This document shows positions 9,817 through 33,157 of a DNA stretch of 34,640 nucleotides, piece after piece (the stretch's first letter is position 1; the number at the start of each line of letters is the position of its first letter). Made by a program: the position numbers and the translations under genes. Source of the stretch: a virus (Duplodnaviria > Heunggongvirae > Uroviricota > Caudoviricetes); IMG/VR virus record IMGVR_UViG_2877285697_000008, positions 1 to 34,640 of that record; one strand, 5' to 3'. Under the pieces are notes generated by a model. The model saw only the letters and a list, made by a program, of their open reading frames with translations. It was not told where the DNA came from and made no database searches.

Positions 9817-11091
9817 TTAAACGCTCGCCACGTTATACCAGGTACCATTAATCAGTTTTTGCAGCGGTCGGTAATACACACCGTCAACGTTATCCGCTGA
9901 GTTACGGTGGGTATCCGATATCTTTACCCCTGACAGCCCGTGTCCCGAAGGTGCGCGAAATGTCCACGAAACGGTGTTACTGCCGGGGCCGTAATACATT
10001 TCATGGCCATATCGCACATCCTGTACCCCCTCAGTTCGATGTTTATAGCGGGCATCGAAGTTTCCGTAATTTAACGGAATTACCTGTCCGTTTACGGCGA
10101 ACGTGATGCTGTTATCTGTATTCCTCTGGCTGAAAAAATGCCAGCCTGAATCATCAACAAGCTCTGCAACAACAGGCCTGGATGGATTACCCCACAAACA
10201 AAACGCTGCATTTTTCGTGGAGTTGTTGGCGCTGGATAACGTGAATTTTCTGGCAGTTCCGGCCTGAATATTCTTAAAAGCAATAGCCACGCCATTCTGA
10301 AAACGAAATACATGCTGTCCATTCGCATAAACATCCAGCAGACCATCGCCGTTCTGTTTCAGGCCGGTATCGTTATCCCCGAAAACAATTGAATTTCCAC
10401 CTAACGCATTCGTCGTACCAATGCCAAGGCAACCATTAATGACGGCATTAACCAGAATATTTAGTGAATCCCATTTAAGATTCATCAGCTCTTTGAGCTG
10501 GCCGCCAGCGAGGCGGTGTCTCCATTTGAAATACTCATTGCCGTTGTCACCTGTTTCAAACCACATGTATGAATCAGTATCGCTGTCGGCATCATTTTTA
10601 AAACCAATCTTTGCCCAGTCAGTATTCCGAATCCAGGCGAGGATTGAGTCGTTTTCAAAAGTAAGTCCACCGGACAAGGTATCGCCTGTCTTTTGGACAG
10701 CGTTACCAGCCTTGTTTACCGTTTCCTGTAAACCAAGGTTTTCGAGAGCCGTTTTCACCGTGCCATCCGATTTGATATCGCCAAACGGATTCTTGCGGCT
10801 CAGGTATTCAACAGCAAACCCCGATCCCAGCAATTCAACAAAACCGGGCAGATCACCATTATCAAGCACATCCCGTTGCGTTTTGTCACTTACAAACTGG
10901 GCCAGAGCTGCAGCAATAAAGCTGGCCTGCCGAATAACCTTATTGACTTGCGCACTGGATGCTTTCCCTGCTGTAAATCCGGATAAAAGCGCAGGCAACG
11001 CTTCCCATTCCTCCTGCGACATAACATTGGCATTTTTACCCGTTGCAAACGCTTTAAAGTCATTTTTCGCCATCAGAGTAATACTCCCCAT
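9817..11091 (-). CDS. Tail fiber protein (Mu S / P2 gpH-like receptor-binding C-terminal region)
   Basis: 424 aa; block ...LGLQETVNKAGNAVQKTGDTLSGGLTFENDSILAWIRNTDWAKIGFKND... is strongly reminiscent of P2 gpH-type fibers. Confidence 0.8.
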   Translation of the reverse strand: MGSITLMAKNDFKAFATGKNANVMSQEEWEALPALLSGFTAGKASSAQVNKVIRQASFIAAALAQFVSDKTQRDVLDNGDLPGFVELLGSGFAVEYLSRKNPFGDIKSDGTVKTALENLGLQETVNKAGNAVQKTGDTLSGGLTFENDSILAWIRNTDWAKIGFKNDADSDTDSYMWFETGDNGNEYFKWRHRLAGGQLKELMNLKWDSLNILVNAVINGCLGIGTTNALGGNSIVFGDNDTGLKQNGDGLLDVYANGQHVFRFQNGVAIAFKNIQAGTARKFTLSSANNSTKNAAFCLWGNPSRPVVAELVDDSGWHFFSQRNTDNSITFAVNGQVIPLNYGNFDARYKHRTEGVQDVRYGHEMYYGPGSNTVSWTFRAPSGHGLSGVKISDTHRNSADNVDGVYYRPLQKLINGTWYNVASV

Positions 11092-11753
11092 GCTCCTACA
11101 TCAAAACCACTGATGAATTCGTTATCCATATCAAAACCAAAAAATTTTGAGCCTTCCGATGGGGTTTCCACCGAAGGTGTTTCAATGCCACCCGCCCATA
11201 CCCCGGCGGCTTTTACTGTGAGATACCCCTGTTTAATTGCCGCAATTAACTCACACGATACATCTGAAATATCAGTATCAGGAAAGACCCAGACCGATAT
11301 CGTCATGTCCTGATTATCGACTATCTGCATTCGCAGCCCGGATCCTGCTGTTGCAGCGTCAAGAATTGCCGGAAGCGAATCATTCCGTCCATCCCAGTTA
11401 TTAATCGCAATCTTCGCTTTAAGAATGACACGATAAGTTTCATCGCTGAGGTACATGTATCCGGAATCAGGATCGTATGGTCCCTGCCATACCCCCTGAT
11501 CATATCCAAGCCCGTCGGTATCCCAGCTGAAATAGACACCTGAGATAGGCTGGCTGACAACACGGCTACGTCCGATCCACAATCCCAGAATGTCAAGTTG
11601 CACACCAACCGCAGAGTCAATATCAAATGCAGTAATCAGCCCTCTGGTGGCAGCCGCAACATCAATAAGTGGCCGGGTCATCAGATCAACATGCGCAAGA
11701 AATTTAGGTTTGGTGGCGTGGTAGTTCGTGATTAGTTCGGTGTATTTGCTCAT
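11073..11753 (-). CDS. Baseplate protein (Mu gp48 / P2 gpI-like)
   Basis: 226-aa ORF in the conserved position between the J-like baseplate gene and the fiber gene. Confidence 0.65.
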   Translation of the reverse strand: MSKYTELITNYHATKPKFLAHVDLMTRPLIDVAAATRGLITAFDIDSAVGVQLDILGLWIGRSRVVSQPISGVYFSWDTDGLGYDQGVWQGPYDPDSGYMYLSDETYRVILKAKIAINNWDGRNDSLPAILDAATAGSGLRMQIVDNQDMTISVWVFPDTDISDVSCELIAAIKQGYLTVKAAGVWAGGIETPSVETPSEGSKFFGFDMDNEFISGFDVGAWGVLL

Positions 11754-12949
11754 GACTCCACCGTTATAACGATATTTTCCGGGGTACAGGACGCAGATTC
11801 GTTGTATCTGATATCAATGTTTGATGACGACAAAGCCCCCGGGGATTTCCCAATCGTCAGCTCCTGAATATCGTAATAGCGTGCATTCCCGCCACTCACC
11901 ACGCCAAGATTCGCCGGTGAGTAAATGCGACTTAAAAGGACCGAATCACCAATCGTCAGACTAATGATATAGTCGGAAATAACCTGCTGGATCTGCTGCC
12001 CTATCTGTGAGGTATAACCCGTAAAAACTTTTAATTTAATCCGGGCATAAACAGGCACATCACTGGAACGCGAGAATTTGATTACATGGGGATTGCCGTA
12101 TTTATCCGGAACCGTAACGGATGTTGTACCGTGAGTGGCTGTCCCCTGGCCTTTATTCCCTCTGATAGCCTGAGCAATATCCGTCACATCACCGCCATCC
12201 ACAATTACAGCAACAGAGTGTGGCGGTAACCCGTTACCGTCCTCCGAACCAGTATCGTTTTCATAGAGTTTGTGGCGGGTTACACCGGCAACATTAGAAA
12301 CAGCACCATCCAGTGCTTCAAATGGGGTTATTGATGGCAACGCAACACTTTGCGACTGGCGGATACGTAACTCAGCATCAGTTTCTGCCGGAGAGCCAAC
12401 AGTAGCCGCAGCAGGATTAATTACCGAAACCCAGCCACGGGTTGGCGTATTAATTTCAGTGATAGTTCCAGCCAGCGCCGCCACTGCACCACTGACGGAA
12501 CATCTTGCGGTCGCCATCACTGTACCATCCACACCGACCACCACTGACGCAGGCAAACGCCATATCACATTATTACCATCTTTCACGCTGCCATTAATGA
12601 TGGTTGTTCCGGCTGTTCCTGTAAGAAGCAAATCAACCGTAGAGTTCGTCGCGCCTTTACGTGAAATACCATTTATTTTCACGTTACTGGTCAGTGCAGC
12701 CCCATAGCCGGTTGCCGGTGAAAAACAGTTGTAGACAGTTATAGCCATATTATTGGCATCATGAATCGCCAGCGCCATCAGAGCCACCATCTGACCGTCT
12801 TTACTGTCCGGTTCGAGGTAGGCATCACTACCATAAATCTGCTGAAAATAGCTAATCAGGGTGCTGAGTATCGTCTGATAATCAGGCGCACTGATCCCCT
12901 CCGCGGTTACCTTTGCAGATAAACCGAGAGAATCAAGGTTCAGAGCCAT
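11750..12949 (-). CDS. Baseplate J-like protein (Mu gp47 / P2 gpJ-like)
   Basis: 399-aa ORF with 4-nt overlaps to neighbours; position and size match the baseplate wedge gene. Confidence 0.7.
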   Translation of the reverse strand: MALNLDSLGLSAKVTAEGISAPDYQTILSTLISYFQQIYGSDAYLEPDSKDGQMVALMALAIHDANNMAITVYNCFSPATGYGAALTSNVKINGISRKGATNSTVDLLLTGTAGTTIINGSVKDGNNVIWRLPASVVVGVDGTVMATARCSVSGAVAALAGTITEINTPTRGWVSVINPAAATVGSPAETDAELRIRQSQSVALPSITPFEALDGAVSNVAGVTRHKLYENDTGSEDGNGLPPHSVAVIVDGGDVTDIAQAIRGNKGQGTATHGTTSVTVPDKYGNPHVIKFSRSSDVPVYARIKLKVFTGYTSQIGQQIQQVISDYIISLTIGDSVLLSRIYSPANLGVVSGGNARYYDIQELTIGKSPGALSSSNIDIRYNESASCTPENIVITVES

Positions 12950-15815: not shown

Positions 15816-15818
15816 TGT

Positions 15819-16120
15819 TACTCCGTGAAAACATAGAGGTGTGAGAGCGTTCCAAGATCGAATTGCGTCGGATTCTCCTGCCCTGCCACGTCGCAGAGCA
15901 CCACCAGAGAAAAACCCTGATCCATATATCGATACTGTGCCAGCAGGTCAGCCCCCATAATCATCGGTATACCTGATATAATGGCGGAGCCATTGCTGTC
16001 AGCAAGATCCAGAACCCAGCACTCGCCTCACCAGATGACAGACAGGTGATAAACCGAACCGTTAATTGTGGTGGCAAAAGTCTGATTGTCAGCAACCAGT
16101 GGGATTTCTACGGCTTTCAT
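15819..16120 (-). pseudogene. Small tail-module gene (~100 codons) with an in-frame TGA
   Basis: ATG at 16120, 30 sense codons (MKAVEIPLVADNQTFATTINGSVYHLSVIW), TGA at 16028-16030, then 69 in-frame sense codons to TAA at 15819-15821; tightly packed between neighbours. Confidence 0.4.
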
Positions 16121-16123
16121 GAA

Positions 16124-16774: not shown

Positions 16775-17039
16775 TACGCAGGTCCTTTCAATTGCTGTAC
16801 CGCCCTGGCATTTACAGCCCCCTGCTTGTCAGCGATCAGATTAGCCGCCTCCTGAGGGTTGTTAACTCCATGAACATTTATAACAGTCTGCTGGTTAAGG
16901 TTGCCAGCGGCGGCCTGATACGCCAGCGGGCTGTTCCAGTTTGAATAACCTTCTTTGCGCGCCATCGACTGCATCAATGCTCCCATAGTCCGGGGATCTG
17001 TAAGATTCAATATTGCATTCGGTGGGTAATGACTCCAAC

Positions 17040-17543
17040 TTACTGATAGTGTTTTATGTTCAGATAATGCCCGATGACCTTGTCATGCAGCTCCACCGAT
17101 TTTGAGAACGACAGTGACTTCCGTCCCAGCCTTGCCAGATGTTGTCTCAGATTCAGATTATGTCGCTCAATGCGCTGAGTGTAACGCTTGCTGATAACGT
17201 GCAGCTTTCCCTTCAGGCGTGATTCATACAGCGGCCAGCCATCCGTCATCCATACCACGACCTCAAAGGCCGACAGCAGGCTCAGAAGACGCTCCAGTGT
17301 GGCCAGAGTGCGTTCACCGAAGACGTGCGCCACAACCGTCCTCCGTATCCTGTCATACGCGTAAAACAGCCAGCGCTGACGTGATTTAGCACCGACGTAG
17401 CCCCACTGTTCGTCCATTTCAGCGCAGACAATCACATCACTGCCCGGTTGTATGCGCGAGGTTACCGACTGCGGCCTGAGTTTTTTAAGTGACGTAAAAC
17501 CGTGTTGAGGCCAACGCCCATAATGCGTGCACTGGCGCGACAT
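17040..17543 (-). CDS. insB: IS1 InsB (made as InsAB' by -1 frameshift)
   Basis: 167-aa ORF overlapping insA, typical IS1 arrangement. Confidence 0.9.
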
Positions 17544-17737
17544 CCGACGCCATTCATGGCCATATCAATGATTTTCTGGTGCGTACCGGGCTGAGAGGCG
17601 GTGTAAGTGAACTGTAGTTGCCATGTTTTACGGCAATGAGAGCAGAGATAGCGCTGATGTCCGGCAGTGCTTTTGCCGTTACGCACCACGCCTTCAGTAG
17701 CGGAGCAGGAAGGACATCTGATGGAAATGGAAGCCAC
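17462..17737 (-). CDS. insA: IS1 InsA
   Basis: 91-aa zinc-finger/HTH protein [37 protein letters not shown]... Confidence 0.9.
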
Positions 17738-19680
17738 GCAAGCACCTTAAAATCACCATCATACACTAAATCAGTAAGTTGGCAGCATTACCCATTCGGT
17801 GATACTCCCATCCATTTCGCAACATCCTGTGCATACTTTTTCGGATCGTTGTTATCACCTGCCGGGGCCCAGGTACTGACAATATCCTGAATAGTCTGTA
17901 ATGCCCGTCCGGTTGTTTTCCCGGTAAAGTAACGCATGAGCTGGTTTTTCATCGCCTCCCAGCCCTCAAGAGCTGATTCGAAAAACCGGAACCCTTTACC
18001 GCTCACCGGGCGAATATTCCCTGGATTGTTATTCCGATCGGCTAAAGTACGCTTCGTAGACTGCGCATGTTGTTCCGGCTCAGCACCTGGAATATCTGAC
18101 TGAATATTTGCGCCTTTTACGGTATGAGGATTACGACCAAAATCGGTATCAATGCCAAGCCAGCGCAATGAATCTCCAATATTTTGTTTCGTGTAATCCC
18201 AGGATGACTTCGCACTGGCACCAATATTTTCGCGATCAGAGTACAAATACGCAGCATAAGCCATCCAGCCTTTTAACCACGGCGGGACCAGCAAACCTGA
18301 TATTTTCCCGAAAGCCCCCAGAACCTTGGATACCCAGACACCCGCGATGAATGTACCGAGGATTTCCAGTGCATTTTGCCAGCCGCCAACACCATCTTTT
18401 AGTTCCAGAAGGTGATCACGAAGCCAGGTGATCGCATCCTTCGCTTTATCTATTGCTGGTTGCCATTTTTCCCAGTCGATAAGACTGTTACCGCCTTCTT
18501 TCCATGTTTTGTAGTCTTCCCACAAGAGACCGAGAGCCACGATCAGACCGGTAATCAGCCCTATAGGTGACATCCAGAAAGTAGAGTTAAGTATCCGCAT
18601 GGCGACAACCAGACCGCCGATAACCTCTATCAGGGTTTTCGTTTCGGCATCCAGTTTCCCCCACCACTCGATGATATCTCCGACACCATCGACTATCCGG
18701 AATGCACCCCGCCCGACTATCTCACCCAGCCAGAGGATCCCCTTTATGACCTTTGTGATGGTGACTTCAATTTTGGGAAAATTTTCAATTATCTTTTTGC
18801 GCAGGTTATCAATCTGCCCCGCCAGTCCGTCCGCAAGATTCGATCCGATTTTGTCCCGCGCCATCCCGGCCATTTCACCGAGCGATTTCAGCGAGGTCAT
18901 AAACCGGTTTGACGATAAGGCAGCCTGATCGGCATTAAATCCGATCGCTTTCACCATTTCTGAATACTGAGCGCTGAACTGCCCCACTCCGCGACGCATA
19001 GCCATAAGGGTATTTTCGTCAATGCTCAGCATCTGCGCATACTGGTTAGCCCGGTAATACGGCATACCGCTGAGCTTCTGGCCTACACCAGTAAAAATAG
19101 CGGCCATGTCACGCATGTTACCGCTGGCATCACGGGTCTGTACGCCCAGGCGATTCAGAAAGCCTTCTGCACCGGGATTGTTACGAATAAACCGGGAGAG
19201 GCTTTCCAGAGAAGATCGCGCAGCGTCCACGCTGCCGCCAACCTGCGAAACCGCATAGCCAATAGACTGAATTCCCTGGACTGTCGCGCCGGTGCGCTGT
19301 GACGCCCAGTAAAGATTATCCAGACCGGAGGCGATCTTAGCCGTGAAGGCCACCACGGACAGCGCAGCTCCTTCAACAGCCAGCCCCATTTTGATGACAT
19401 TTGCAGTTGTACCGGCGAGGACAGAACCGAACTTTTTCGCTCCTGCATCATCCACACTGAAGCCAAGCGAGACGAGGAAATCTTTAATAGTCTCGGCGTT
19501 CATTATCCTCTCTCCATTTTTCTACCCGGACATCGTTGTCCTCGCACATATCAAGGTAGTCATTAAGAAGCGCGATGCGACAGAGATCTACCGCACCACT
19601 GTTAAGATCTTTCTGGTCAATATGGAAGGCAAGCGCCGGACGAAGAATAAAATCTTCACCACCCGGCAGGCTATTGAAGG

Positions 19681-20133
19681 TTATTCCGCTGGCGGGATGG
19701 GCGTCTCTTTGGTAGGGTGTCCTTGCAAAAAATTTCCTAGCGAATCGGCGACCACCCGCGCCACCAGCTGCAGCATGACCAGCAGGTCAATATCATCAAA
19801 CATCAGTTCGCCCTGGGTAAATACCGGCACCCATCCGTCCATATGACGCCGCGACACCACCGCAAGACAGGGATGAATAATTGCACTGGTGTCATCTTCG
19901 GTCAGGGAAGACAGTTCCTCAGCGATACGCGGGAGCATGGTTTCAAACACCGGTTTTAACTGCTCGAATTTCACGGTGTCTATTTTGCCGTCAGCAGGCA
20001 AACGGGAGCGAATGCTCCCGAAATCTGACATCATTCCTGCCAGCACCGGCAGAAGTTTGCGGGTCACTTTCAGCTGGTCAAAAACGCTGAGTTTTGCCGC
20101 GCGATATTTCACGCCTTTGATTTCGAATTCCAT
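19681..20133 (-). CDS. Tail assembly chaperone (lambda G / P2 E-like)
   Basis: 150-aa ORF between the tube and tape-measure genes; a -1 frame extension of ~80 codons follows (see frameshift site). Confidence 0.7.
   Translation of the reverse strand: MEFEIKGVKYRAAKLSVFDQLKVTRKLLPVLAGMMSDFGSIRSRLPADGKIDTVKFEQLKPVFETMLPRIAEELSSLTEDDTSAIIHPCLAVVSRRHMDGWVPVFTQGELMFDDIDLLVMLQLVARVVADSLGNFLQGHPTKETPIPPAE
19726..19732 (-). promoter_or_regulatory. Candidate -1 programmed ribosomal frameshift site (slippery heptamer T_TTT_TTG)
   Basis: Minus-strand TTTTTTG near the 3' end of the chaperone ORF; the -1 frame stays open ~80 codons to a TAA at 19483-19485, just inside the tape-measure start. Confidence 0.55.
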
Positions 20134-20136
20134 GTA

Positions 20137-20577
20137 TTAAAACTCCCCGAGAACCTGGTCAATCTTGCCGCAGTCAAGCACCCACGGCATCGTATTACCG
20201 GTTTTAGCGTTGGCGTTATCCGGTTGTTTCTGGAACGCAACACTGCGTGCCGTGATGATGTCGCCGCTGACCTTGTTTCGGATCACAATAACGTTATTCC
20301 CCCATGTGGCAGAAGACTGGCTCTGTGCGTTATACGCCAGCGACAATTTTTTATTTGTCGGTGATGTCTTCAGAAGGTTAACGGTAATCGTCCCGCTTTT
20401 ATCTGCATGGAGACTGTGCATCACTTCGCCATCAGCACCGATGGTCATGGTGTTTTTAGGACCGCCCATCGCAACCACAATCCCCTCTTCAGAACTTGCC
20501 GAACCGTACCCGAGGTCAATCGAACCGGTCGGCCCGGTCAGCGTCGCAGTGACATCCATAAAAGAATAGGTAGACAT
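20137..20577 (-). CDS. Tail tube protein (Mu M / P2 FII-like)
   Basis: 146-aa ORF immediately downstream of the sheath gene. Confidence 0.75.
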   Translation of the reverse strand: MSTYSFMDVTATLTGPTGSIDLGYGSASSEEGIVVAMGGPKNTMTIGADGEVMHSLHADKSGTITVNLLKTSPTNKKLSLAYNAQSQSSATWGNNVIVIRNKVSGDIITARSVAFQKQPDNANAKTGNTMPWVLDCGKIDQVLGEF

Positions 20578-20587
20578 TCACTTCCCC

Positions 20588-21733
20588 TTAGCGAACAACG
20601 TTAATCTGTACGTCAGCGTAATGAACCGCGCCTGCAAGTTTTATTGCAGCCTGAATCACCGGAGCCTTACGGGCTTCACGTTCTGATTGTGCCTGTTCAT
20701 CCAGCGGCTGGGCGTATACGTAATAACCTTTGGGCAGCGTGTCACCTGATGACAACTGACCAAGGTCGCCACCGTTCCATACGCCCGGAGCAATCAGTCC
20801 ATTCTGAACGGCCTGATCCAGTGATTTTTCAACACTTGATAACAGTCGGGTAATACCGGCTTCACTCTGGGGTACTTTCGTGGTGCTGGTATAAAGCAGG
20901 TTATAGAGGTTGGTCTGCACATAATTCTGTAACCAGTCCAGGCCGTGGCGTTCATCAAAGAAATCGCCGTTAGCCATCACTCCCTGCTGGAGGATAGCCG
21001 TATCATTCTGGTAGTACACGAATACATTGCAGTTTTTTGCATCAAGTGCCGATGCCTGGCTGACTGTCAGTGTTTCATACCCGACACCCGGCTCCTGCTT
21101 AAACTTGAGCGTAATCGCGGTATTACTGCCATTGAAATTAACCGTGAATGCCCGGCCAAATGCAGATAACGCAGCGTATTTATTACCCGATGAATACTGA
21201 ATAAAACTGCGTGAATATCCGGCGGTTTTCAGTTTTGATGCCAAATCATCGCTGGATGCGGTCTGCAGGCATTTCTCATCGCTTGTCGTAATCGCCAGAA
21301 TACGGCTTACAGAAGAGGATTCGATCGCCGCAGCCACATTCAGCCAGTCTGCATCCGGAATATCTGCATCGTCTGCAATCCCCAGCCCATACCATGAAGT
21401 ATAATCAAGCATGGCATTCACAGCCTGCTCCAGCGTCTCAGGCGTGGCCTGTTCGCTGTCTCCCTTCGTTTTCACCCAACGACCAACAAAAACCTCCTGA
21501 GGTTTCGGTGATTGTGAGAAAAACACCTGCGCAGCCTTATATTCTGGTGATTCCACGCCAAAATCTTTTCCAATATCTTCCGCAGCAGAATAACGGCGAA
21601 TGCGCTCACTTACCGGAATGATTGTGGACGGGCCGAGAATGAGTAATGCACCAAAATTTCGCCCTGATGCTGCACGCGGCGACATGATCACATCAACATT
21701 AACAACGTTTGATACAGGCAAGCCCTGTGCCAT
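20588..21733 (-). CDS. Contractile tail sheath protein
   Basis: 381-aa ORF at the head of the tail module, followed by tube and chaperone genes. Confidence 0.8.
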
Positions 21734-21736
21734 AGC

Positions 21737-22345
21737 TTAATCTCCGAAAAAGATGACTGGTGCTTCCACCAGCGATTTAATACCGTACTCGCGCACAACC
21801 TTCCGGCGCAGACGCACCGTCATATCGTAGCGGCGGACCCATTGCTGATTAATAAGTTCAGGGAAGGGAGTCAGACCTGTGTAATCGCCAAGAGACAGCC
21901 CCAGCGCATTCAGTGCTGCATTGTTCTGCGGCACAGATATACCGTCACGAAACCGGGACGCATACACCATCCCCGCCGGACCATAAAACGAAGCCATACA
22001 CTCAATCGTTTCATGCCGCCAGAGCTGAGAGCCATCATCGGTCTGTCTGGTGAATGCCGGACTGTCATCACCTGACCATCCGATAACCCCAAACGCACAC
22101 CAGCTCGTTTCAGCCGGTAGCAGTGGCGGCTGCTCTTTCTGCCAGCGCGGACGAACCATCCCGGCAGACAGACCGGAAACGTTACGCATCCACTGGCTTA
22201 ACAGCCTGTCGAGCGCTTCGTCATAATCCGGATCGCCACTGGTTGGTATCAGCCATCCGCACTCTGTGCTGGTGTTATTGCTCAACCGGAATTCCCCCAT
22301 CAAACGGCAGCAACTCACAATGCGCCTGAACGAATCCGGCACCAT
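21737..22345 (-). CDS. Phage structural protein, function unassigned (true start probably internal)
   Basis: ORF directly upstream of the sheath gene; the track start overlaps the upstream gene by 70 nt, a TTG about 11 nt before the upstream stop is a more plausible start. Confidence 0.4.
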   Translation of the reverse strand: MVPDSFRRIVSCCRLMGEFRLSNNTSTECGWLIPTSGDPDYDEALDRLLSQWMRNVSGLSAGMVRPRWQKEQPPLLPAETSWCAFGVIGWSGDDSPAFTRQTDDGSQLWRHETIECMASFYGPAGMVYASRFRDGISVPQNNAALNALGLSLGDYTGLTPFPELINQQWVRRYDMTVRLRRKVVREYGIKSLVEAPVIFFGD

Positions 22346-22664
22346 ACGCTGTATACGGGTCGACGAAAGTCACACGATAATCACGGCCCTGATACGTCAC
22401 GATATCGGCATCACGGCCAGTCTGTCCCTGCGTCAGTCGCTCAGTCGTCACAATCAGAATTGCACCACTGATTACCTGCCCGGCCTGCATACGACGGTTT
22501 TCCAGAGAGCGATCAACAGTAACGACTCCGGCAAACTGCTTTTTAACTTCGCTGTCGCTGCCGATCCCATCCTCATCCACCGTTTGCACACGGCGTGTTA
22601 CCCACAAATTGAAGTCGCAAAAATCGGGGTCAAAAAGCACATCTGTTACATCAAGAGTCGGCAT
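22275..22664 (-). CDS. Phage head-tail joining / tail completion-like protein
   Basis: 129-aa ORF in a tightly overlapping gene string between head and tail modules. Confidence 0.4.
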   Translation of the reverse strand: MPTLDVTDVLFDPDFCDFNLWVTRRVQTVDEDGIGSDSEVKKQFAGVVTVDRSLENRRMQAGQVISGAILIVTTERLTQGQTGRDADIVTYQGRDYRVTFVDPYTAYGAGFVQAHCELLPFDGGIPVEQ

Positions 22665-23205
22665 CTTTATCCCTCACAACATGGGTAATCGCTCTGCGAT
22701 ATTGCCCGGTGTCAATTAATGGTTTCGCCAGTTCGGTTCCCGGAGATTCGCCAGCAGCACGCCGGGCAAGTTCCAGTGTTGCCCCCTTGCGCCCCCGACG
22801 AGCCCGGGCTTCAACAGTACTGTCAGCAAGCGGCGTAAAGCCGGTAATGGTCATGTAACGCCTGACGCCATTAGCGGCCAGCGTTCCGGCACGGTTGAGC
22901 GCTCTTTCCGCACCCGCCGCATTACCATCAAGCGCAGCCTGCGCCGCTGCTTTGAGCTGCGGCACTGTCTGTTCTTCTACCGATTTAACGCCGGGGACCA
23001 GGTGAGGTCGTGGCGGGATGTTTTGCGCCGGTGAGCCGTATTCGTTGAGGTAACCGATGCCCGCATTACCAAACGGAACATCATCCCGCTCGCTGTCTTC
23101 CGAAGGGAGGCCGACCAGCACATCTTTTTTGGTTAACGACCTGAGCGCATCCAGAATGGCCTGAGCGTTATCCACCCTCGTTGTTACACCGCTTTTGAAA
23201 CTCAT
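22651..23205 (-). CDS. HK97 gp10-like head-tail / virion morphogenesis protein
   Basis: 184 aa with the motif [13 protein letters not shown], resembling the conserved L-x-DTG-x-L motif of HK97 gp10-type proteins. Confidence 0.5.
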
Positions 23206-23609
23206 AGCTGGCGACCGCCTGCACCGAACATCGTGATCAACTGATAAAATTCAGCGCCATATCGGGTGTTATTCCAGAAACCTGCATCAGGATTCAGCGT
23301 CGCGCTGGTGTCATAACTGACGCTTACCTTATCCACGGACTTTGAGGACTGAACACCATTGGTTGAACCGCCCGGACCACCAGCCAGCATCGCCCGGCTG
23401 TCTGCCGCCCAGAGCGTCATGTAGTGCGCAACGAACAATCCGGCAAAGTACGGAAACAACTTTTTTTCGGTGACGTTTTCGCTCAGCAGTTCATCGGCCA
23501 GATTCAGACGAAACTGGATTTGCGCTTCGGGATATTTGGCAGGGTCAGCAAACTGCGGGAAGTCGCGGCGAAAATCACTTACCGCTGGCAGACTTTGATT
23601 CTTTGGCAT
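23202..23609 (-). CDS. Phage head-tail connector-like protein
   Basis: 135-aa ORF; its start overlaps the upstream gene so the real start may lie downstream. Confidence 0.4.
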
Positions 23610-23796
23610 TTTTTACCTCGTTACGCGCGTCTGTGGCTTTGCCAACGGATACTTCCGCGTGCGCACGAGTGAACCAGTGCGTGGCAACGTCTTCCTCCAC
23701 TGCATGACGGCCTTTAACAAACTCGCGCCGCGAACCGTCGGGAAGCGTGAGCACAAACGGGGTATGTACGTGTATTACTGCATTATTTTTTGCCAT
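23575..23796 (-). CDS. Small phage structural-module protein
   Basis: 73-aa ORF with AAGGA RBS, directly after the truncated head-gene stub. Confidence 0.35.
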
Positions 23797-23806
23797 CGGG
23801 TCATCC

Positions 23807-23908
23807 TTAATGGCCCCGCCAGGGGGCCATATGGCTGTTAAATGCCATCAACGTACGAAATGGTTTCTTTGTACACTGGCTCGACTGCACCCAGCTTGCC
23901 GTAGTAAG
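23807..23908 (-). pseudogene. 3' stub (33 codons) of an upstream head gene, truncated by IS911
   Basis: Open frame ...LMAFNSHMAPWRGH ends at TAA 23807-23809 and has no start; it runs straight into the IS911 end at 23909. Confidence 0.4.
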
Positions 23909-23980
23909 TGAAGTGGCACACTGAATTTGGCCACCTGAACAGAGGTGATATGCTCACCTCAGAACAACACAGGTGCTCCA

Positions 23981-25149
<1,169 letters not shown>

Positions 25150-25347
25150 CCACTTCACTTCCTGTGATTTACTGTTATCGCTGCCTGTCACAATAGGTTG
25201 CTTTAATTCTTCCTCATCACTCACTCCTGCGACGCTCCGTGGCAGGGCCCCCCACAGGAGTACCTTGTAAATGTAAGGTGTTTAAGCCTAAATTAAGTCG
25301 TATCACGGTTAAATAGCAAAGAAAAATTCACAGAAGGAAAGACATTG

Positions 25348-25857
25348 ATGGAGTGGATAAATGCTTTGATGAACTATTTTGTACTTCATCCATATCGCCT
25401 ATGGGGGCTTCTTTTTATAATAGCGTTCACAAAATCCACTTTACTCATTTCGTCGATATTGCCACCAGCATCAATTATGATGGCCACTGTAATTACAGTC
25501 AGCAAGACGACTCTTTCACCATGGGAAGCTGGAATCACGGTCATGAGTGGCGCATGGTGCGGTACTATCGTTAATTACCATCTTGGTATAATAATTGGGC
25601 ATATCCCTCAACTTGCATGTATAATATCGAGCCGTTCCAATACAATAGAACGGGTTCGCCTTCAGTTGCAAAATAACTCTGTGTCAATACTTTTCACTTC
25701 GCGCTTTATCGCCGTGCTGCGTTATATTGCTCCTTTGGTGGCAGGAATGTTGCAACTTCATCCAGTGAAAGTGTATACAGTGAGTCTGATTTCAGCTGCT
25801 AGCTGGTCAGCACTTTATGTTGGTAGTTTTAGCTTCGTGTTGCCTTTTTTTAGCTAA
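25348..25857 (+). CDS. DedA/YqaA-like small integral membrane protein
   Basis: 169 aa, multiple hydrophobic helices, Gly-rich mid-motif; AGGAAA RBS; lies in an AT-rich 853-bp segment bracketed by inverted IS911 copies. Confidence 0.5.
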   Translation: MEWINALMNYFVLHPYRLWGLLFIIAFTKSTLLISSILPPASIMMATVITVSKTTLSPWEAGITVMSGAWCGTIVNYHLGIIIGHIPQLACIISSRSNTIERVRLQLQNNSVSILFTSRFIAVLRYIAPLVAGMLQLHPVKVYTVSLISAASWSALYVGSFSFVLPFFS

Positions 25858-26018
25858 ACTGCCCATAAAAAGCTCTTGCGAATCCAGCTTCCCCCATTCC
25901 TCTGACAACAGAATCTGATTTGAAGGATAATGAGTAAAATTACCGCTACCCCCCAAGGCATTGGATCCTGATGTACTCCTGAAGCATTCTCAATGCTGTC
26001 TGGTCGCTGATGAAGTGG

Positions 26019-27187
<1,169 letters not shown>

Positions 27188-27379
27188 TGGAGCACCTGTG
27201 TTGTTCTGAGGTGAGCATATCACCTCTGTTCAGGTGGCCAAATTCAGTGTGCCACTTCAGGTTATGGCTTTTGGTATAGAGAAAAAAGTTATTGCTTTTT
27301 GACGTAAAAACTGCTTCAATTCTTGTACGCTTCGCAAAGCTGTACCGCGAGGCGAATAGCAGACATGGACATTTGAAAG

Positions 27380-27403
27380 AGCCCGCTTTATGCGGGTTTT
27401 TTT
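27380..27403 (+). terminator. Intrinsic terminator upstream of the tRNA cluster
   Basis: Stem AGCCCGC/GCGGGT(T) with loop TTTAT followed by a 7-T run. Confidence 0.55.
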
Positions 27404-27491
27404 ATACCTGAAAAACGGCACAGGACGTTAAACGTGCTGGTGGTCAGATGAGTTTGCAGATGTGATGACATATGGTTATTATTCTGCCTCC

Positions 27492-27568
27492 GGTCCTTTA
27501 GCTCAGTTGGTCAGAGCGAGCGACTCATAATCGCCAGGTCGCTGGTTCAAGTCCAGCAAGGGCCACCA
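27492..27568 (+). tRNA. tRNA with CAU anticodon (Met or lysidine-type Ile2, ileX/ileZ-like)
   Basis: Cloverleaf readable by hand: acceptor GGTCCTT/AAGGGCC, anticodon loop CTCATAA, T-arm GCTGG-TTCAAGT-CCAGC, encoded CCA. Confidence 0.8.
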
Positions 27569-27569
27569 A

Positions 27570-27646
27570 CCACCACTAGCTCATCCGGATAGAGCATCAA
27601 CCTTCTAAGTTGACGGTGCGAGGTTCGAGTCCTCGGTGGTGGGCCA
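27570..27646 (+). tRNA. tRNA-Arg (anticodon UCU)
   Basis: Acceptor CCACCAC/GTGGTGG, anticodon stem TCAAC/GTTGA with loop CTTCTAA, T-arm CGAGG-TTCGAGT-CCTCG, encoded CCA. Confidence 0.8.
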
Positions 27647-27648
27647 GC

Positions 27649-27724
<76 letters not shown>

Positions 27725-27727
27725 TAT

Positions 27728-27802
<75 letters not shown>

Positions 27803-28415
27803 GCGAGATTTGAGACGAAGGTTGTTATTTGCACTGACACAATATTGTGTGGGAATGTCTGACTCCTTACCATCTCCTGTTCTGTGATGTTGTTTTGTTG
27901 CAGTTCCAGTGCTCTTTTTTCAGCACCAGAATGGTGCATTGTCGGTCAGGTTACGTAGTGAACCTCTGGCAGGGGACTGATGATTCATCATTCTGGTGTT
28001 GTAAATATCTCTTCGGACAACTTACAAAATATTCTAAGCAAACCCCGGGAACACACTCTTAACTGCCTTGGTTGGCGGTTTTTTGTACAGCGCTCGGTAT
28101 GTGTGAGCTGGAAATCAGATTTTGCATGGACTGGAATCATGCTGTTATTTAGGGGCGAAGAACTGGCTTTTTCTTCCGCCTTCTCACCAGTAACGATTAG
28201 AAAAATAATGAAATGCCCCCCTCCGGGGAGGAGGACCGTAGAAAAAAGGACCCGCCAGCAAAAACATTGGGGATGAACAGCTTTCGCTACTCAGATTGCT
28301 GGCGGGTAAAGTTCCTCATGAATTAAGAATGCTACGCGATCTTTTTTAATGGAAATGAAAATTATTGTCAATTAGTCGTGCGTGTTTTTTCATACAATAT
28401 TGGTAAAGGTGATTC

Positions 28416-28447
28416 AGGCCATCAGAGTTTTGCTGATGGCCTTTTTT
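28416..28447 (+). terminator. Strong intrinsic terminator (tR'-like) about 35 nt upstream of the holin gene
   Basis: Perfect 10-bp stem AGGCCATCAG/CTGATGGCCT, 7-nt loop, then TTTTTT. Confidence 0.7.
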
Positions 28448-28482
28448 CTTTCCGATAGCACAGGTCTGTCGGGGGGCGGGAT

Positions 28483-28698
28483 ATGTATCAGATGGAAAAA
28501 ATATCAACAGGCATTGCCTACGGCACCTCCGCCGGCAGTGCCGGCTACTGGTTTTTGCAGTGGTTGGATCAGGTCAGTCCATCACAGTGGGCTGCGATTG
28601 GTGTGCTGGGAAGTCTGCTTCTGGGGCTTCTGACTTATCTGACGAATCTGTATTTCAAAATAAGAGAAGATAAGCGTAAGGCTGCGAGAGGTGAATAA
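28483..28698 (+). CDS. S: Class II holin / pinholin (phage 21 S21-like), dual-start motif
   Basis: 71 aa, [71 protein letters not shown], recalled as very close to phage 21 pinholin; Met1 and Met4 starts. Confidence 0.85.
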
Positions 28699-29195
28699 TG
28701 TCGCCATCATTACGCAAGGCTGTTGCAGTTGCTATTGGTGGCGGGGCTGTTGCTATAGCATCTGTGTTAATCACTGGCCCAGGTGGTAACGATGGTCTGG
28801 AAGGTGTCAGCTACATACCATACAAAGATATCATTGGTGTATGGACTGTATGTCACGGACACACCGGAAAAGACATCATGCCTGGTAAAACGTATACCGA
28901 AGCAGAATGCAAAGCTCTCCTGAATAAAGACCTTGCCACTGTCGCCAGACAAATTAACCCGTACATCAAAGTCGATATACCGGAAACAACGCGCGGCGCT
29001 CTTTACTCGTTCGTTTACAACGTGGGCGCTGGCAATTTCAGAACATCGACGCTTCTTCGCAAAATAAACCAGGGCGATATCAAAGGCGCATGTGACCAGC
29101 TACGTCGCTGGACATATGCTGGCGGTAAGCAATGGAAAGGGCTGATGACCCGTCGTGAGATTGAGCGTGAAGTCTGTTTGTGGGGGCAGCAATGA
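28698..29195 (+). CDS. R: SAR endolysin (T4-lysozyme-like muramidase, phage 21 R-like)
   Basis: 165 aa; N-terminal signal-anchor-release segment ([18 protein letters not shown]) followed by a Glu/Asp/Thr catalytic region; start overlaps the holin stop. Confidence 0.85.
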
Positions 29196-29609
29196 GCAGA
29201 GTCACCGCGATTATCTCCGCTCTGGTTATCTGCATCATCGTCTGCCTGTCATGGGCTGTTAATCATTACCGTGATAACGCCATTACCTACAAAGAGCAGC
29301 GCGACAAAAACGCAAGAGAACTGAAGCTGGCGAACGCAACCATTACTGACATGCAGCAGCGCCAGCGTGCTGCTGATGCACTCGATGCTAAATACACGAA
29401 GGAGTTAGCCAATGCGAAAGCTGAAAATGATGCTCTTCGGCGCAAGCTTGATAATGGTGGTTGGGTGCTCGTCAAAGGAAAATGCCCTGTGCCATCCTCA
29501 GCCGAAACCTCCAGCGCCTCCGGCATGGGCAATGATGCCACCGTCGAACTCTCTCCAGTTGCTGGACGAAACGTTCTCGGTATCCGGGACGGAATCATCA
29601 TGAAGTGGC
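29192..29609 (+). pseudogene. Rz: Rz i-spanin, C-terminally truncated by IS911
   Basis: [34 protein letters not shown]... matches the lambda Rz N-terminus; native reading ends at the IS911 junction (29609/29610) and the last ~30 residues of the track ORF are IS-encoded. Confidence 0.8.
29412..29603 (+). CDS. Rz1: Rz1 o-spanin lipoprotein, embedded in the +1 frame of Rz
   Basis: Lipobox LIMVVGCSS and Pro-rich mature region ([16 protein letters not shown]), as in lambda Rz1. Confidence 0.75.
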
Positions 29610-29681
29610 TGAAGTGGCACACTGAATTTGGCCACCTGAACAGAGGTGATATGCTCACCTCAGAACAACACAGGTGCTCCA

Positions 29682-30850
<1,169 letters not shown>

Positions 30851-30858
30851 CCACTTCA

Positions 30859-31635
30859 CATCCAGTGGCGGTGTTCTCCCGCCAGGCTCCAGGCATTTAA
30901 CAGTCCCAGTGAGTAATAACCTTTATCCATTAACGTCAGAGTGTTATCGCCGGTTTGTTCTATAAGTTGCTCAGCAAGCTCATTTTCGCTGTTCTTCATC
31001 GTGCCGAAGGCTGCAGCCGTCAGCAGATGGCTGGTCAGTTCCATCTGGCAGACCATTTTGACCTGCGGGTAGAGCGCCGGGTTCCCGGCATGTGTCTGGC
31101 GGGGGAAGGCTGCATCGTTCTCTGGTGTATCCGGTGTGCGCCAGAACACACCATCGATGGCCAGCAGGGTCAGGCCGCACCAGTGCGGATGCGGCGTGGC
31201 GTTATGCCAGAGCTGCGCTGTTTTCGTGAACACGCGGCGGACAGCCTCACTTCCCAGGCGCTGGCGGGCCTGAATAACGGCACTGGGGGCAACGAAGGGG
31301 CGATTGCCCGGCAGCATGATGTCCAGGCGATTCACAATCTGGTGAAGAGGTTCTTTACGCTCAAGCGCCATGCCAACAATACACCAGACCATCATTTCGA
31401 GGGGAAGACGGCGCTTGCGTAGCGTTACAGTACCTGATTCGGCAAGGCAACGAGAGATGAGTTCGGGGTCGAGGTAATCCCCCAGAGAAGTCAGTGGGTT
31501 ACGCAGAGAATCGTAACGGGATACCAGATCAAGAGCCTGTCCAATGTGCATAAAAAAATCCGGAAACAAGTGAGCGTTTCCGGATTCTTACACAGCCACT
31601 GGATCGGTCAACTGATCCTTAACTGATCGGCATTA
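30859..31635 (-). mobile_element. IS4, partial copy (777 bp, transposase N-terminal 231 codons only)
   Basis: Collinear with 4627-5403 of the complete copy, same terminus ...GGCATTA at 31635; the other side is replaced by IS911 copy 3. Confidence 0.85.
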
Positions 31636-31727
31636 TCCGTCAGAAGTCCATTACAAAAATAAAATAACACAGCACCGCTCTTCCTGAGGTGTACTGGCAA
31701 TAGCGGACACTATCATTTGTTCTTTTT

Positions 31728-32546
31728 TTAAGCAGCCATCTGATGATATTTTTCCCTGAAGGCTGCCGGGGAGATATTCCCCAGACGAGAGTGACGACGC
31801 TGACGATTGTAGAAAATCTCAATGTATTCCCGTATTACTGAGATGGCTTCATCCCGGTTATTAAAACGATAGTGGCTCAGGCTCTCATTTTTCAGCGTTC
31901 CCCAGAAGCTTTCCATCGGAGCGTTGTCGTAACAGTTACCTTTACGCGACATTGATGTTTTCAGACCAAACTGCTCCTGTATGACCCGGTAATCGTATGC
32001 GCAGTACTGTGAACCTCGATCAGAGTGGTGGATTAGCCCGGCAGGTGGGCGCTGGCTCCTGAGCGCCATAAACAGGGCTTTACCTGTCAGCTCTTTTGTC
32101 ATGCGCTCTCCCATGGCGTAGCCGACAATTTCGCACGTATAAACATCTTTGATGCCAGCGAGGTACAACCATCCCTCCTGTGTGGCAACATACGTCAGGT
32201 CCGCCACCCAGACCTGATTTGGTGCTGTAGGAGCGAACGTCTGGTTCAGCAGATTTGGCGCAACTGGCAGATTGTGGTTCGGGTTCGTAGTCGCTCTGAA
32301 CTTGCGTTTCTGCTTACAGCGTAGCCTTAGCTCCTTACGAAGACGTGCCAGTCGGTCACGACCAACGATGATGCCATTCTCTGCCAGCTCCGTCTGGAGC
32401 CGCCGGGTTCCATATGTTTCGCGAGTGCGGATATGTGCCACCTTAATCTCCAGTTTTAGCCGCTCATCACTTTGTTTTCTGTCTGAGGGTTCATGCTGTA
32501 CCCAGTTGTAATAACCGCTCCTGGATACACCAAATACCTGACACAT
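31728..32546 (-). CDS. IS600 OrfB
   Basis: Identical protein to 6682-7500. Confidence 0.9.
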   Translation of the reverse strand: MCQVFGVSRSGYYNWVQHEPSDRKQSDERLKLEIKVAHIRTRETYGTRRLQTELAENGIIVGRDRLARLRKELRLRCKQKRKFRATTNPNHNLPVAPNLLNQTFAPTAPNQVWVADLTYVATQEGWLYLAGIKDVYTCEIVGYAMGERMTKELTGKALFMALRSQRPPAGLIHHSDRGSQYCAYDYRVIQEQFGLKTSMSRKGNCYDNAPMESFWGTLKNESLSHYRFNNRDEAISVIREYIEIFYNRQRRHSRLGNISPAAFREKYHQMAA

Positions 32547-32581
32547 CGCTTCAATGGGAAATTGTTGTCGCCATTGTTCGA

Positions 32582-32884
32582 TTAACGCGTATTTTTCAGC
32601 GACTCCTGTGCAAAATACGCTGTTGCTTTTTTTAATATATCTCGCTCAAGGCGAGCTTCATTTAACGCCTTACGCAGTTGCAGAATTTCAGATTCCAGTT
32701 CAGCCACCGTGCGGGAACCAGGAGTACCGAGCCCTTTTCTGGCGGCGGTAACCCATTGTCCTAAAGTGCCTTCAGGAAGGGATAATCGGGAAGCGCCTTC
32801 ACTGATCGAAAGTTGATTTTCAAGAACCGTTCTGACAGCTTCGGCTTTGAACTCTTTAGAGTAACGTTGGGTTTTTCTGCTCAT
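32582..32884 (-). CDS. IS600 OrfA
   Basis: One substitution relative to copy 1 (TVLENQ versus TVPENQ). Confidence 0.9.
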   Translation of the reverse strand: MSRKTQRYSKEFKAEAVRTVLENQLSISEGASRLSLPEGTLGQWVTAARKGLGTPGSRTVAELESEILQLRKALNEARLERDILKKATAYFAQESLKNTR

Positions 32885-33157
32885 TATTAGCTCCTTCTGA
32901 TGCCATTCTATTTCAGGAAGGAGTGTCCGTTAAACTCAGGCTACCTCAGTTAATGAGGCTATTGCGGCAAATATGGAATTATTATCCACGCAACATATAA
33001 GCTTACTGGATAGAATAAAAGGTAATAGCGTAACATTATTCTGCGAGCTGATATTAAATTTCAGAAATGAAATAGAGCGTAGACAATTAAGCACAAACAC
33101 CAGGTAATGCTGCCAACTTACTGATTTAGTGTATGATGGTGATTTTAAGGTGCTTGC

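Follow-up and report, generated by a model that had tools for sequence, protein, structure and literature searches.

In phage lambda, the bor gene lies downstream of Rz on the opposite strand, and composite transposons of the Tn5 and Tn10 type place inverted copies of one insertion sequence (IS) around a single-gene cargo. DedA proteins are tied to undecaprenyl-phosphate recycling, colistin resistance and membrane homeostasis. In Shigella, rearrangements are usually put down to recombination among the many IS copies, and prophages decay through insertion of IS911, IS600, IS1, IS4 and IS66 followed by deletion or inversion. All of these systems bear on a DedA-family gene that stands between two inverted IS911 copies in the window, by which we mean the whole 34,640-nucleotide stretch analysed here (IMG/VR record IMGVR_UViG_2877285697_000008), positions 15345-34640 of which are 100% identical to CP026827.1 from S. 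dysenteriae. An earlier note on this DNA had read the arrangement as a composite-transposon-like unit, and indeed, as in Tn5 and Tn10, a single gene stands between oppositely oriented copies of the same IS. In this report, we compare the locus with IS911-free relatives, and these comparisons show that the DedA gene is very probably an accessory gene that has never left its native site within a decaying, IS911-disrupted S. dysenteriae prophage.

IS911 belongs to the IS3 family and is defined by a length of ~1250 bp, terminal inverted repeats (IRs) of the type TGAAGTGG..., a 3-bp target duplication, and orfA (HTH) and orfB (DDE/rve) in overlapping frames. A repeat search revealed two inverted arms of 1249 nt, at 23909-25157 and 26011-27259, which the search gave as 100% complementary although they differ at 2 positions, and which are separated by 853 nt; both contain HTH_Tnp_1 and rve ORFs (Pfam) and match RefSeq-annotated IS911 elements with 99.6-99.8% identity. 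Together with the terminal inverted repeats and a 3-bp TGA duplication, these features identify them as IS911. Copy 1 (23909-25157, + strand) has its left repeat (IRL) on the left and its right repeat (IRR) toward the DedA segment, whereas copy 2 (26011-27259, - strand) adjoins the DedA segment with its IRR and an inverted block of DNA with its IRL. A third copy at 29610-30858 (+ strand), the putative inversion partner of copy 2, is also part of the structure that brackets the DedA segment; it differs from copy 1 and from copy 2 at 1 position each, and the three copies have only 2 variable positions in total. The four junctions read GTAAG/IS (J1), IS/CTTCC (J2), GCTGA/IS (J3) and IS/GGTTA (J4), and no direct repeats surround copy 1, copy 2 or the pair at J1-J4. 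The AAG and CTT that flank copy 1 are reverse complementary, which we take as chance (1 in 64).

The reference for the prophage map was L005, an IS911-free prophage from E. coli FDAARGOS_944, whose native order is head genes, terminase, DedA (opposite strand), Rz, lysozyme, holin, tRNAs and Q; read along the - strand, this becomes Q, tRNAs, holin, lysozyme, Rz, DedA (opposite), TerS-like, TerL, portal, head and tail. Three pieces of the window map to L005 with identities of 99.7-99.9%: 21750-23908 corresponds to L005 1-2158 (+), 25158-26010 to L005 9001-9853 (+) and 27260-29600 to L005 12190..9851, inverted. The left flank, the 853-bp segment and the block to the right of copy 2 are therefore all parts of one prophage, and the segment, 99.9% identical to IS-free prophages, maps as a piece of a lambdoid, contractile-tailed prophage that has kept its native place and, judged against the left flank, its native orientation. 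To the left of copy 1, a DUF2184 major-capsid-like gene (annotated at 2088-3029 on the - strand of L005) is reduced to a 3' remnant of its last ~23 codons (23838-23908, - strand), broken by copy 1; the capsid, portal and terminase genes of L005 are missing at this point, and the segment resumes 8 nt before the start codon of the TerS-like gene. At the other end of the segment lie the 3' terminal 65 nt (25946-26010, - strand; L005 9789-9853) of an Rz-type 'lysis protein' gene that occupies 9789-10259 (-) in L005 and has been severed by IS911 insertion. The inverted block (27260-29600, +, 2341 bp) includes the Q-downstream region with four tRNAs (27492-27802), the holin gene (28483-28698), the lysozyme gene rrrD (28698-29195) and the 5' 409 nt of Rz (29192-29600), whose ORF continues into IS911 as far as 29701; an Rfam scan of 25100-29700 returned the four tRNAs and nothing else. 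Both Rz breakpoints coincide and share the 3-bp overlap TGA, one copy of which lies at 26008-26010 (+; L005 9851-9853) and the other at 29598-29600 (-, reading as the reverse complement TCA). Thus, the earlier note was correct that no duplication flanks the copies or the pair, although a target duplication does exist, split between these two sites. The 9 bp between the second TGA and copy 3 repeat the tip of the IS911 IRL (TGAAGTGGC, 29601-29609, +), which does not fit simple insertion plus recombination. The IRR of copy 3 adjoins an IS4 transposase fragment (30859-31635, - strand; PF13006 and PF01609; a 100% match to the annotated IS4 of L003), and the prophage early region expected beyond this fragment is absent.

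These data support a model in which three ordinary IS events produced the bracketed appearance. Copy 1 takes the place of 6.84 kb of head and packaging genes, from the interior of the capsid gene up to a point 8 nt ahead of the TerS-like start; an IS911 inserted into the Rz gene, generating the TGA duplication; and the DNA between this Rz-sited IS911 and another, of opposite orientation and located upstream of the tRNA cluster, was inverted, which flipped the tRNA-holin-lysozyme-Rz' block and parted the two TGA copies. According to this model, copies 1 and 2 lie side by side by accident and are not the two arms of a transposon, and the duplication looks absent at copy 2 because it was split by the inversion involving copy 3. 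L005 12191 onward, the far-side junction of the second IS911, is missing from the window, so at least one more rearrangement is required. The whole picture is one of ordinary IS-driven prophage decay. Like other decaying Shigella prophages, this one contains near-identical IS copies and a split 3-bp duplication of the IS3-family type and has lost head, packaging and early genes, and other lineages have independent IS911 insertions and an independent inversion: in S. flexneri SFBU1023, IS911 lies at L005 10034 and L005 12590..10879 is inverted independently, and in E. coli O121 201805972 and VL7S7, IS911 adjoins at other points upstream of DedA. There is no essential difference from Shigella IS decay, the sole oddity being the 9-bp IRL-tip duplicate. 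The window and E. coli O121 201805972 had seemed to share a left junction, but this was a 10-bp BLAST extension and was rejected as a chance match.

The same observations allow other accounts of the structure to be weighed. One is a composite transposon, made up of the inverted IS911 pair with the DedA segment inside, that imported the gene or can export it; this is hardly credible, even though a compositionally distinct single-gene cargo does lie between two near-identical copies of the same IS (1249-nt arms set 853 bp apart). In IS-free prophages, the cargo and the sequence that here lies beyond each IS copy are collinear, so that cargo and both flanks come from one prophage rather than representing foreign DNA found at various sites; the outer flanks (GTAAG and GGTTA) contain no duplication; and the inner-right junction is a normal insertion site with its duplicate 3.6 kb away beside the third copy, the sole duplication (TGA) thus linking an inner junction, that of copy 2, with copy 3. 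IS911 transposes by a copy-out-paste-in mechanism through an IRR-IRL circle junction, as reviewed, and both outer ends of the pair are IRL; given this pathway, an inverted pair would be a poor substrate. The absence of a flanking duplication, a native cargo, one set of flanks and the circle-junction pathway therefore all separate this locus from the Tn5 and Tn10 type. A single set of flanks was found, in two complete S. dysenteriae genomes and in draft contigs of ~850-960 bp; the IS911-DedA-IS911 unit was not present in 5426 E. coli genomes, 72,556 plasmids or 50,697 phage records, and the exact J2 junction had no match in 185,579 species-representative genomes. The idea of a mobilised unit that would recur elsewhere with different flanks is thus contradicted by the search and by the IS-free relatives, which have the ORF at the same prophage place, and the flanks become collinear with the prophage after one deletion and one inversion. 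The alternative offered by the earlier note, a chromosomal fragment trapped by IS recombination, holds as far as the trapping is concerned, but what was trapped is prophage DNA, not an ordinary chromosomal fragment. A closer competitor keeps the same structure and assigns it to IS911 transposase acting intramolecularly, in one-ended or dimer-type reactions, instead of to RecA-dependent recombination. Intramolecular inversion also predicts a split and inverted target duplication, the three copies are nearly identical, and the 9 bp repeated from the IRL tip hint that the ends were processed aberrantly; moreover, in EIEC-like E. coli, the IS911 IRR is found at three different points upstream of DedA, resembling nested adjacent deletions. 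Yet the copy-out-paste-in circle pathway alone yields neither adjacent deletions nor inversions, the E. coli cases have different left junctions too, so nesting is not required, and recombination between IS copies is already the usual explanation in Shigella. We therefore regard transposase action as an unlikely route, and homologous recombination between the two IS911 copies as the most likely one.

With homologous recombination in a decaying prophage as the preferred reading, we turn to the gene itself. The 853-bp segment contains a single long ORF (+ strand, 25345 or 25348 to 25857), which encodes a DedA/VTT-family protein (WP_168177836.1 of S. dysenteriae). The PGAP start is TTG 25345 (170 aa); ATG 25348 (25348-25857, 169 aa) appears the likelier start because homologues begin with MEW..., and an AGGAA motif is located 7 nt upstream of it. 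GC content is 43.0% in the segment and 41.7% in the CDS, as against 51.3% in IS911 and 51.1% in the phage flank. The first impression of one intact ORF in a compositionally atypical stretch between inverted arms is confirmed. Only 25273-25867 is shared with Citrobacter prophage and chromosome copies, and this defines a conserved cassette of ~595 bp (+ strand) that consists of ~75 bp upstream, the CDS and ~10 bp downstream; identities to two Citrobacter copies are 82% and 77% over segment positions 116-710 and 121-711 (blastn). The dN/dS values against the Citrobacter copies, 0.26 and 0.17, indicate that the gene is under purifying selection, and the RMDEC465 copy differs by 1 synonymous and 2 non-synonymous changes. 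A consensus scan of 25100-26060 found no sigma-70-like promoter or terminator around the ORF. By eye, a weak TTGTAA-N18-TAAATT and a -35 element in the IS911 IRR (TTGACC) that faces the gene are possible candidates, but neither is convincing.

The distribution of the gene is that of a phage accessory cassette, or moron. The same gene occupies the same slot without IS911 in FDAARGOS_943, FDAARGOS_944 and at least five IMG/VR prophage contigs, and among 5426 E. coli genomes, the head module was found in 340 and the DedA segment in 6. In the E2348/69 prophage, another opposite-strand gene fills the DedA slot and DedA is absent, and RMDEC465 has both this slot gene and DedA. Citrobacter prophages carry a 77%-identical homologue between a GH19-endolysin lysis cassette and a lambda-type terminase, and in every context examined, DedA is on the strand opposite to the late operon. 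The gene is therefore present in only some related phages, between conserved modules and with a different base composition (41-43% versus 51% GC), and on these sequence grounds we take the ~595-bp cassette to be a moron, placed at a variable site that separates the lysis from the packaging module. Its position and orientation match those of lambda bor, and as with bor-type morons, its GC content is below that of the phage, it occurs in a small minority of related phages and it is common to phages with unrelated lysis and terminase modules. The products differ, bor encoding a lipoprotein and the present gene a predicted polytopic inner-membrane protein, and, in contrast to bor, the promoter and terminator scan was empty here. 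Beyond prophages, no DNA match to the segment was found among plasmids, and among sequenced phages there was no DNA match and only DedA proteins of 24-30% identity in records resembling host DNA. A 73% protein match on an 82-kb 'plasmid' was set aside, as the record carries icd, purB and mnmA and looks chromosomal. Our literature search found no paper on a DedA moron in a phage or prophage.

Several lines of evidence place the protein within the DedA superfamily, at some distance from its best-known members. It matches the Pfam VTT_dom profile (PF09335) at E=9.5e-14, scoring 52.4 bits where the cut-off is 33.9 and covering positions 3-121 of the 123 in the profile, and a GRAVY of 0.86 with hydrophobic stretches over the full length agrees with the multi-pass membrane protein proposed earlier. 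The AF2 model, from a 17-sequence alignment, is all-helical but poor (mean pLDDT 58.9, pTM 0.49). The assignment to a 'DedA/YqaA type' stands for DedA and not for YqaA: in BLASTP against K-12 paralogues, the best match is YabI (8e-12), identities to YabI, DedA and YqjA are 23-25%, and YqaA gives no match at E<=10. NCBIfam equivalog scores lie far below their cut-offs (DedA, 30.9 versus 236 bits; UptA, 19.7 versus 250). YabI, DedA, YqjA, B. subtilis UptA and the present protein all possess the VTT domain and an R-x5-R pair followed by a P..AG motif, and the tryptophan matching UptA W146 is conserved here. The roles of the arginine pair (YqjA R130/R136; UptA R112/R118, in the second re-entrant loop) and of the acidic residues have been described (10.1101/2021.10.18.464800, PMC11474028). 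In the YqjA alignment, R130 and R136 correspond to R120 and R126, so the arginine pair required by DedA proteins is present, whereas the membrane acidic residues (YqjA E39 and D51; UptA E32) are not, K30 and A42 standing at the positions of E39 and D51; YqjA PGDS thus reads PPAS here. K30, R120, R126 and W154 show no variation within the subfamily, the lysine across 17 homologues. Canonical proteins are ~200-250 aa long with a C-terminal TM helix (219-254 aa for YabI, DedA, YqjA and UptA), whereas the present protein has 169 aa, lacks ~11 N-terminal residues and stops short of the helix that ends YqjA and DedA. Orthologues outside phages belong to the chromosomal core genes of Enterobacter, Lelliottia and Arsenophonus, where they adjoin a CBS-MgtE transporter gene, and the phage gene appears to derive from this chromosomal enterobacterial subfamily of short DedA proteins. 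Canonical proton-coupled transport is unlikely, because lysine and alanine occupy the essential E39 and D51 positions and the C-terminal helix is missing. We speculate, with low confidence, that the protein would be made in the lysogen as an inner-membrane member of the superfamily and probably serves anionic lipid carriers or membrane/cation homeostasis; our literature search found no experimental evidence for the function of the short-DedA subfamily.

Whether the gene does anything for Shigella, and if so what, can be argued in more than one way. It might be a functionless passenger, intact because it is small and recently acquired: the Shigella and E. coli copies are 98-99% identical, with changes too few to measure selection, the promoter scan was empty, and a few IS insertions could easily miss a gene of 513 bp. 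We find this doubtful in view of the dN/dS of 0.17-0.26 against Citrobacter and the 30 positions invariant across genera, the conserved ~75-bp upstream block that moves with the gene, and the ORF itself, which is full length at each of the 13 close IMG/VR loci and in each of the 6 E. coli genomes. A role in phage defence or superinfection exclusion, or as a lysis modulator, instead of in envelope homeostasis, seems more improbable still. The gene adjoins the lysis cassette and occupies a site at which prophages keep genes expressed in the lysogen, but PADLOC gave no match at all, and the core chromosomal orthologues beside CBS-MgtE argue for a housekeeping membrane role. We are also inclined to doubt, without dismissing it, a more ambitious version of the homeostasis reading, namely that Shigella/EIEC and Citrobacter prophages captured an uncharacterised short-DedA subfamily that acts as a lysogenic-conversion factor on the undecaprenyl phosphate carrier or on divalent-cation or membrane homeostasis; if this were true, the conversion role would also explain why the gene is intact amid a decaying prophage.

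For the interpretation of similar loci, our results imply that an IS-cargo-IS arrangement in an IS-rich genome such as that of Shigella does not count as evidence for a composite transposon, and that an IS-free relative can resolve such a structure into insertion, deletion and inversion and recover the 'missing' target duplication. For the biology of the phages, they indicate that lambdoid prophages hold a DedA-superfamily gene in the accessory slot that bor occupies in lambda. An atypical DedA borne by a phage is in itself a modest curiosity, and in an enteric pathogen it may be considered a candidate for lysogenic conversion.

Two inverted IS911 copies with one complete ORF between them had been described in the earlier note, and a repeat search confirmed this organization: arms of 1249 nt each (copy 1, 23909-25157, + strand; copy 2, 26011-27259, - strand) are spaced 853 nt apart, with a single long ORF (25345/25348-25857, +) in the intervening DedA segment (25158-26010). 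The copies differ at 2 positions in a base-by-base comparison, and each arm has one ORF with an HTH_Tnp_1 domain and one with an rve (DDE) domain and is 99.6-99.8% identical to RefSeq 'IS3-like element IS911 family transposase' elements. AGGAA stands 7 nt ahead of the ATG of the DedA ORF, whose product is strongly hydrophobic (GRAVY 0.86) and scores 52.4 bits with the Pfam VTT_dom (DedA domain; cut-off 33.9), bearing out the ribosome-binding site and the DedA-type membrane protein predicted in that note; the distinct composition of the segment also holds, at 43.0% GC vs 51% in both IS911 and the phage flank. The IS load of the window comprises three copies of IS911, two each of IS600 and IS1, and one IS4 plus a fragment, together with an IS66-family element (5446-8986; tnpA, tnpB, tnpC) broken by IS600, which splits tnpC at 6638-7902.

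The surroundings of the DedA segment are a contractile-tailed lambdoid prophage, with neck, sheath, tube, chaperone and tape-measure genes (PHROGs) on the - strand to its left. Window 15345-34640 is 100% identical to S. dysenteriae CP026827.1, and the DedA protein is listed as WP_168177836.1 ('DedA family protein [Shigella dysenteriae]'). E. coli FDAARGOS_944 has this prophage without IS elements (locus L005, our mapping reference), with the gene order neck genes, STY1053 family protein, DUF2184 (capsid), Gp24, DUF2213, head morphogenesis, DUF1073 (portal), TerL, TerS-like, DedA (opposite strand), lysis protein (Rz type), lysozyme RrrD, holin, four tRNAs and DUF1133 (Q-like), and at least five IMG/VR prophage contigs are collinear with it across 7-12 kb.

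Mapping to L005 at 99.7-99.9% identity aligned window 21750-23908 with 1-2158 and window 25158-26010 with 9001-9853, both in + orientation, and window 27260-29600 with 12190..9851, inverted. The left flank and the DedA segment thus keep their native relative orientation, and the block beyond copy 2 is the stretch that natively follows the segment on the right, reversed. Copy 1 stands in place of L005 2159-9000, a 6.84-kb stretch that begins within the capsid gene and stops 8 nt short of the TerS-like start codon, and the inverted block is bounded at its far end by copy 3 (29610-30858, +). The last 65 nt of Rz lie at 25946-26010 (-) and its first 409 nt at 29192-29600 (+), from where they read on into IS911, and the two breakpoints coincide in L005 with a 3-bp overlap: native Rz reads GTCGC-TGA-TGATTCC, the junction at 26010/26011 reads GTCGCTGA followed by the IS911 terminal repeat IRR, and the junction at 29600 reads GGAATCATCA followed by the opposite terminal repeat, IRL, of copy 3. 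TGA is therefore the 3-bp target duplication of one IS911 insertion into Rz, and its two copies were parted by inversion of the 2341-bp block between the Rz insertion and an oppositely oriented IS911 at L005 12190. The earlier note saw no target-site duplication at the four junctions of copies 1 and 2, and our junction comparison likewise found no direct repeats around copy 1, copy 2 or the pair; a duplication does exist, but its copies were separated by the inversion. The tRNA cluster at 27492-27802 (CAT, Arg-TCT, Thr-TGT, Gly-TCC) now lies in inverted orientation with respect to the late genes; its CAT tRNA is called Met by ARAGORN vs Ile in the annotation of RefSeq relatives, and the fourth is tRNA-Val, not Gly, in E. 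coli O121 201805972 and VL7S7.

Alignment to the IS-free relative shows that the arrangement arose by IS911 insertion plus one deletion and one inversion within the prophage. For the inversion we favour recombination between inverted copies; an intramolecular transposition event predicts the same product, and we prefer recombination because reviews state that IS911 normally moves by copy-out-paste-in via a circle. At least one further event removed the early region of the prophage (a Q-like gene, replication and immunity are absent from the window), and the IRR of copy 3 adjoins an IS4 fragment (30859-31635), not L005 12191 onward; IS600 (31684-32948) and IS1 (33103-33871) follow, and a phage integrase ORF (33879-34640) begins directly after IS1. 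Between the second copy of the target duplication (29598-29600, here as TCA) and the full-length IRL of copy 3, 9 bp (29601-29609, TGAAGTGGC) repeat the IRL tip, and this duplicate could have been left behind when one IS911 inserted into the end of another already in place, or when its ends were processed aberrantly.

The inverted pair had suggested a composite-transposon-like mobilised unit or, alternatively, a chromosomal fragment trapped by IS recombination. Cargo and outer flanks proved to be one prophage; the complete S. dysenteriae genomes CP026827.1 and CP119450.1 show the unit with a single set of flanks, and draft genomes have the segment assembled alone between repeats on contigs of ~850-960 bp. 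A search of 5426 E. coli genomes, 72,556 plasmids, 50,697 phage records and 185,579 species-representative genomes found no such unit. We therefore reject the composite transposon, the segment being native to a prophage slot, and retain the trapped fragment, now specified as a prophage piece in its native slot. IS911 entered this prophage repeatedly and is not the deliverer of the DedA gene. S. flexneri SFBU1023 (CP182556.1, 7848-10808) has an independent IS911 in Rz (L005 10034), 181 bp deeper in the gene than the S. dysenteriae site, and past it an independently inverted Q-tRNA-holin block (L005 12590..10879), then IS600. In E. coli O121 201805972 (L002 6275-7523) and VL7S7 (L004 4752-6000), an IS911 oriented as copy 1 has tail-module DNA on its left, with left junctions 10 bp apart, and its IRR joins the prophage either within the TerS-like gene or at a point 44 bp upstream of DedA, which looks like repeated IS911-associated deletions stopping just short of the DedA gene.

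Sequence comparison thus places the DedA gene in a native prophage slot, where it behaves as a moron. Among 5426 complete E. coli genomes, the head module occurs in 340 and the 853-bp segment in only 6, every time in a prophage and annotated 'DedA family protein' and 'lysis protein'. Cargo varies in this slot, which separates TerS from the lysis genes: E2348/69 carries there a different opposite-strand gene without DedA, and RMDEC465 carries both (the alternative gene encodes a 182-aa hypothetical protein; L118 18424-18972 and L003 5370-5918, respectively). A 77%-identical homologue in Citrobacter youngae (P0002) takes up the same slot, identically oriented, in prophages whose neighbouring genes are unrelated (two holins, GH19 endolysin, lambda-type GpA terminase), and DNA similarity between Shigella and Citrobacter is limited to window 25273-25867, which takes in the CDS with ~75 bp ahead of it and ~10 bp after it. 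The cassette neighbours dinI in C. freundii and C. meridianamericanus, and in one of these cases it is next to icd. The 82-kb C. freundii 'plasmid' pRHBSTW-00902_4 (NZ_CP056259.1) looks like chromosomal DNA, since it carries icd, rluE, mnmA, hflD and purB; its DinI and VTT genes adjoin icd, an Ail/Lom-family gene and an ars operon are in the vicinity, and the region may be a prophage remnant. Compared with the Citrobacter copies, the gene has dN/dS values of 0.26 and 0.17, and none of the sequenced free phages in the phage records searched carries the gene. In position and orientation it presumably corresponds to the bor gene of phage lambda. The prophage carries a further accessory gene, an ipaH-type type-III effector gene (1-1811; LRR_TTSS and NEL E3-ligase domains), which adjoins the tail-fibre genes and may be interrupted; it reads as two ORFs (1-612, clipped by the window start, and 645-1811).

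The DedA protein falls in a narrow subfamily of DedA proteins, 167-185 aa long, whose members come from Citrobacter, Kosakonia, Enterobacter, Lelliottia, Hafnia, Morganella and Arsenophonus. A comparison of three chromosomal lineages (Lelliottia, Enterobacter, Arsenophonus) put the GC of the gene within ~3 points of its locus. A CBS-MgtE gene (333-338 aa) lies next to or near the short DedA gene in two arrangements, divergent in ~25 Enterobacter/Lelliottia species and tandem in several Arsenophonus, and ~3 kb away in Hafnia; this adjacency may point to a role connected with the transport of Mg2+ or divalent cations. Of the E. coli K-12 paralogues, YabI is nearest (24.6%, E=8e-12), with DedA and YqjA next; YqaA gave no match among the paralogues compared, so that the YqaA-like assignment was not sustained. 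In YqjA, E39, D51, R130 and R136 are reported essential, and in UptA the two corresponding arginines, with the matching glutamate, help to bind undecaprenyl phosphate (10.1101/2021.10.18.464800; PMC11474028). In our alignment, the YqjA arginines are kept (R120 and R126), whereas E39 is replaced by K30, invariant in the subfamily, and D51 by A42, in a PPAS rather than PGDS motif. Unlike YqjA and DedA, the protein stops short of their last transmembrane helix, and its NCBIfam equivalog scores are far under the cut-offs. We therefore place it in the VTT/DedA superfamily, outside the canonical YqjA, DedA and UptA types.

We propose that the gene would be expressed in the lysogen from the conserved upstream block, giving an inner-membrane protein that may bind an anionic lipid head group or ion via the arginine pair, without the acidic residues thought to couple binding to protons. 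Our confidence in this molecular function is low, because a sequence scan found no promoter for the gene and the predicted structure model is of poor quality. Overall, the locus represents ordinary IS-driven prophage decay in Shigella, and the one mildly new feature is an atypical DedA-family moron carried by a phage.
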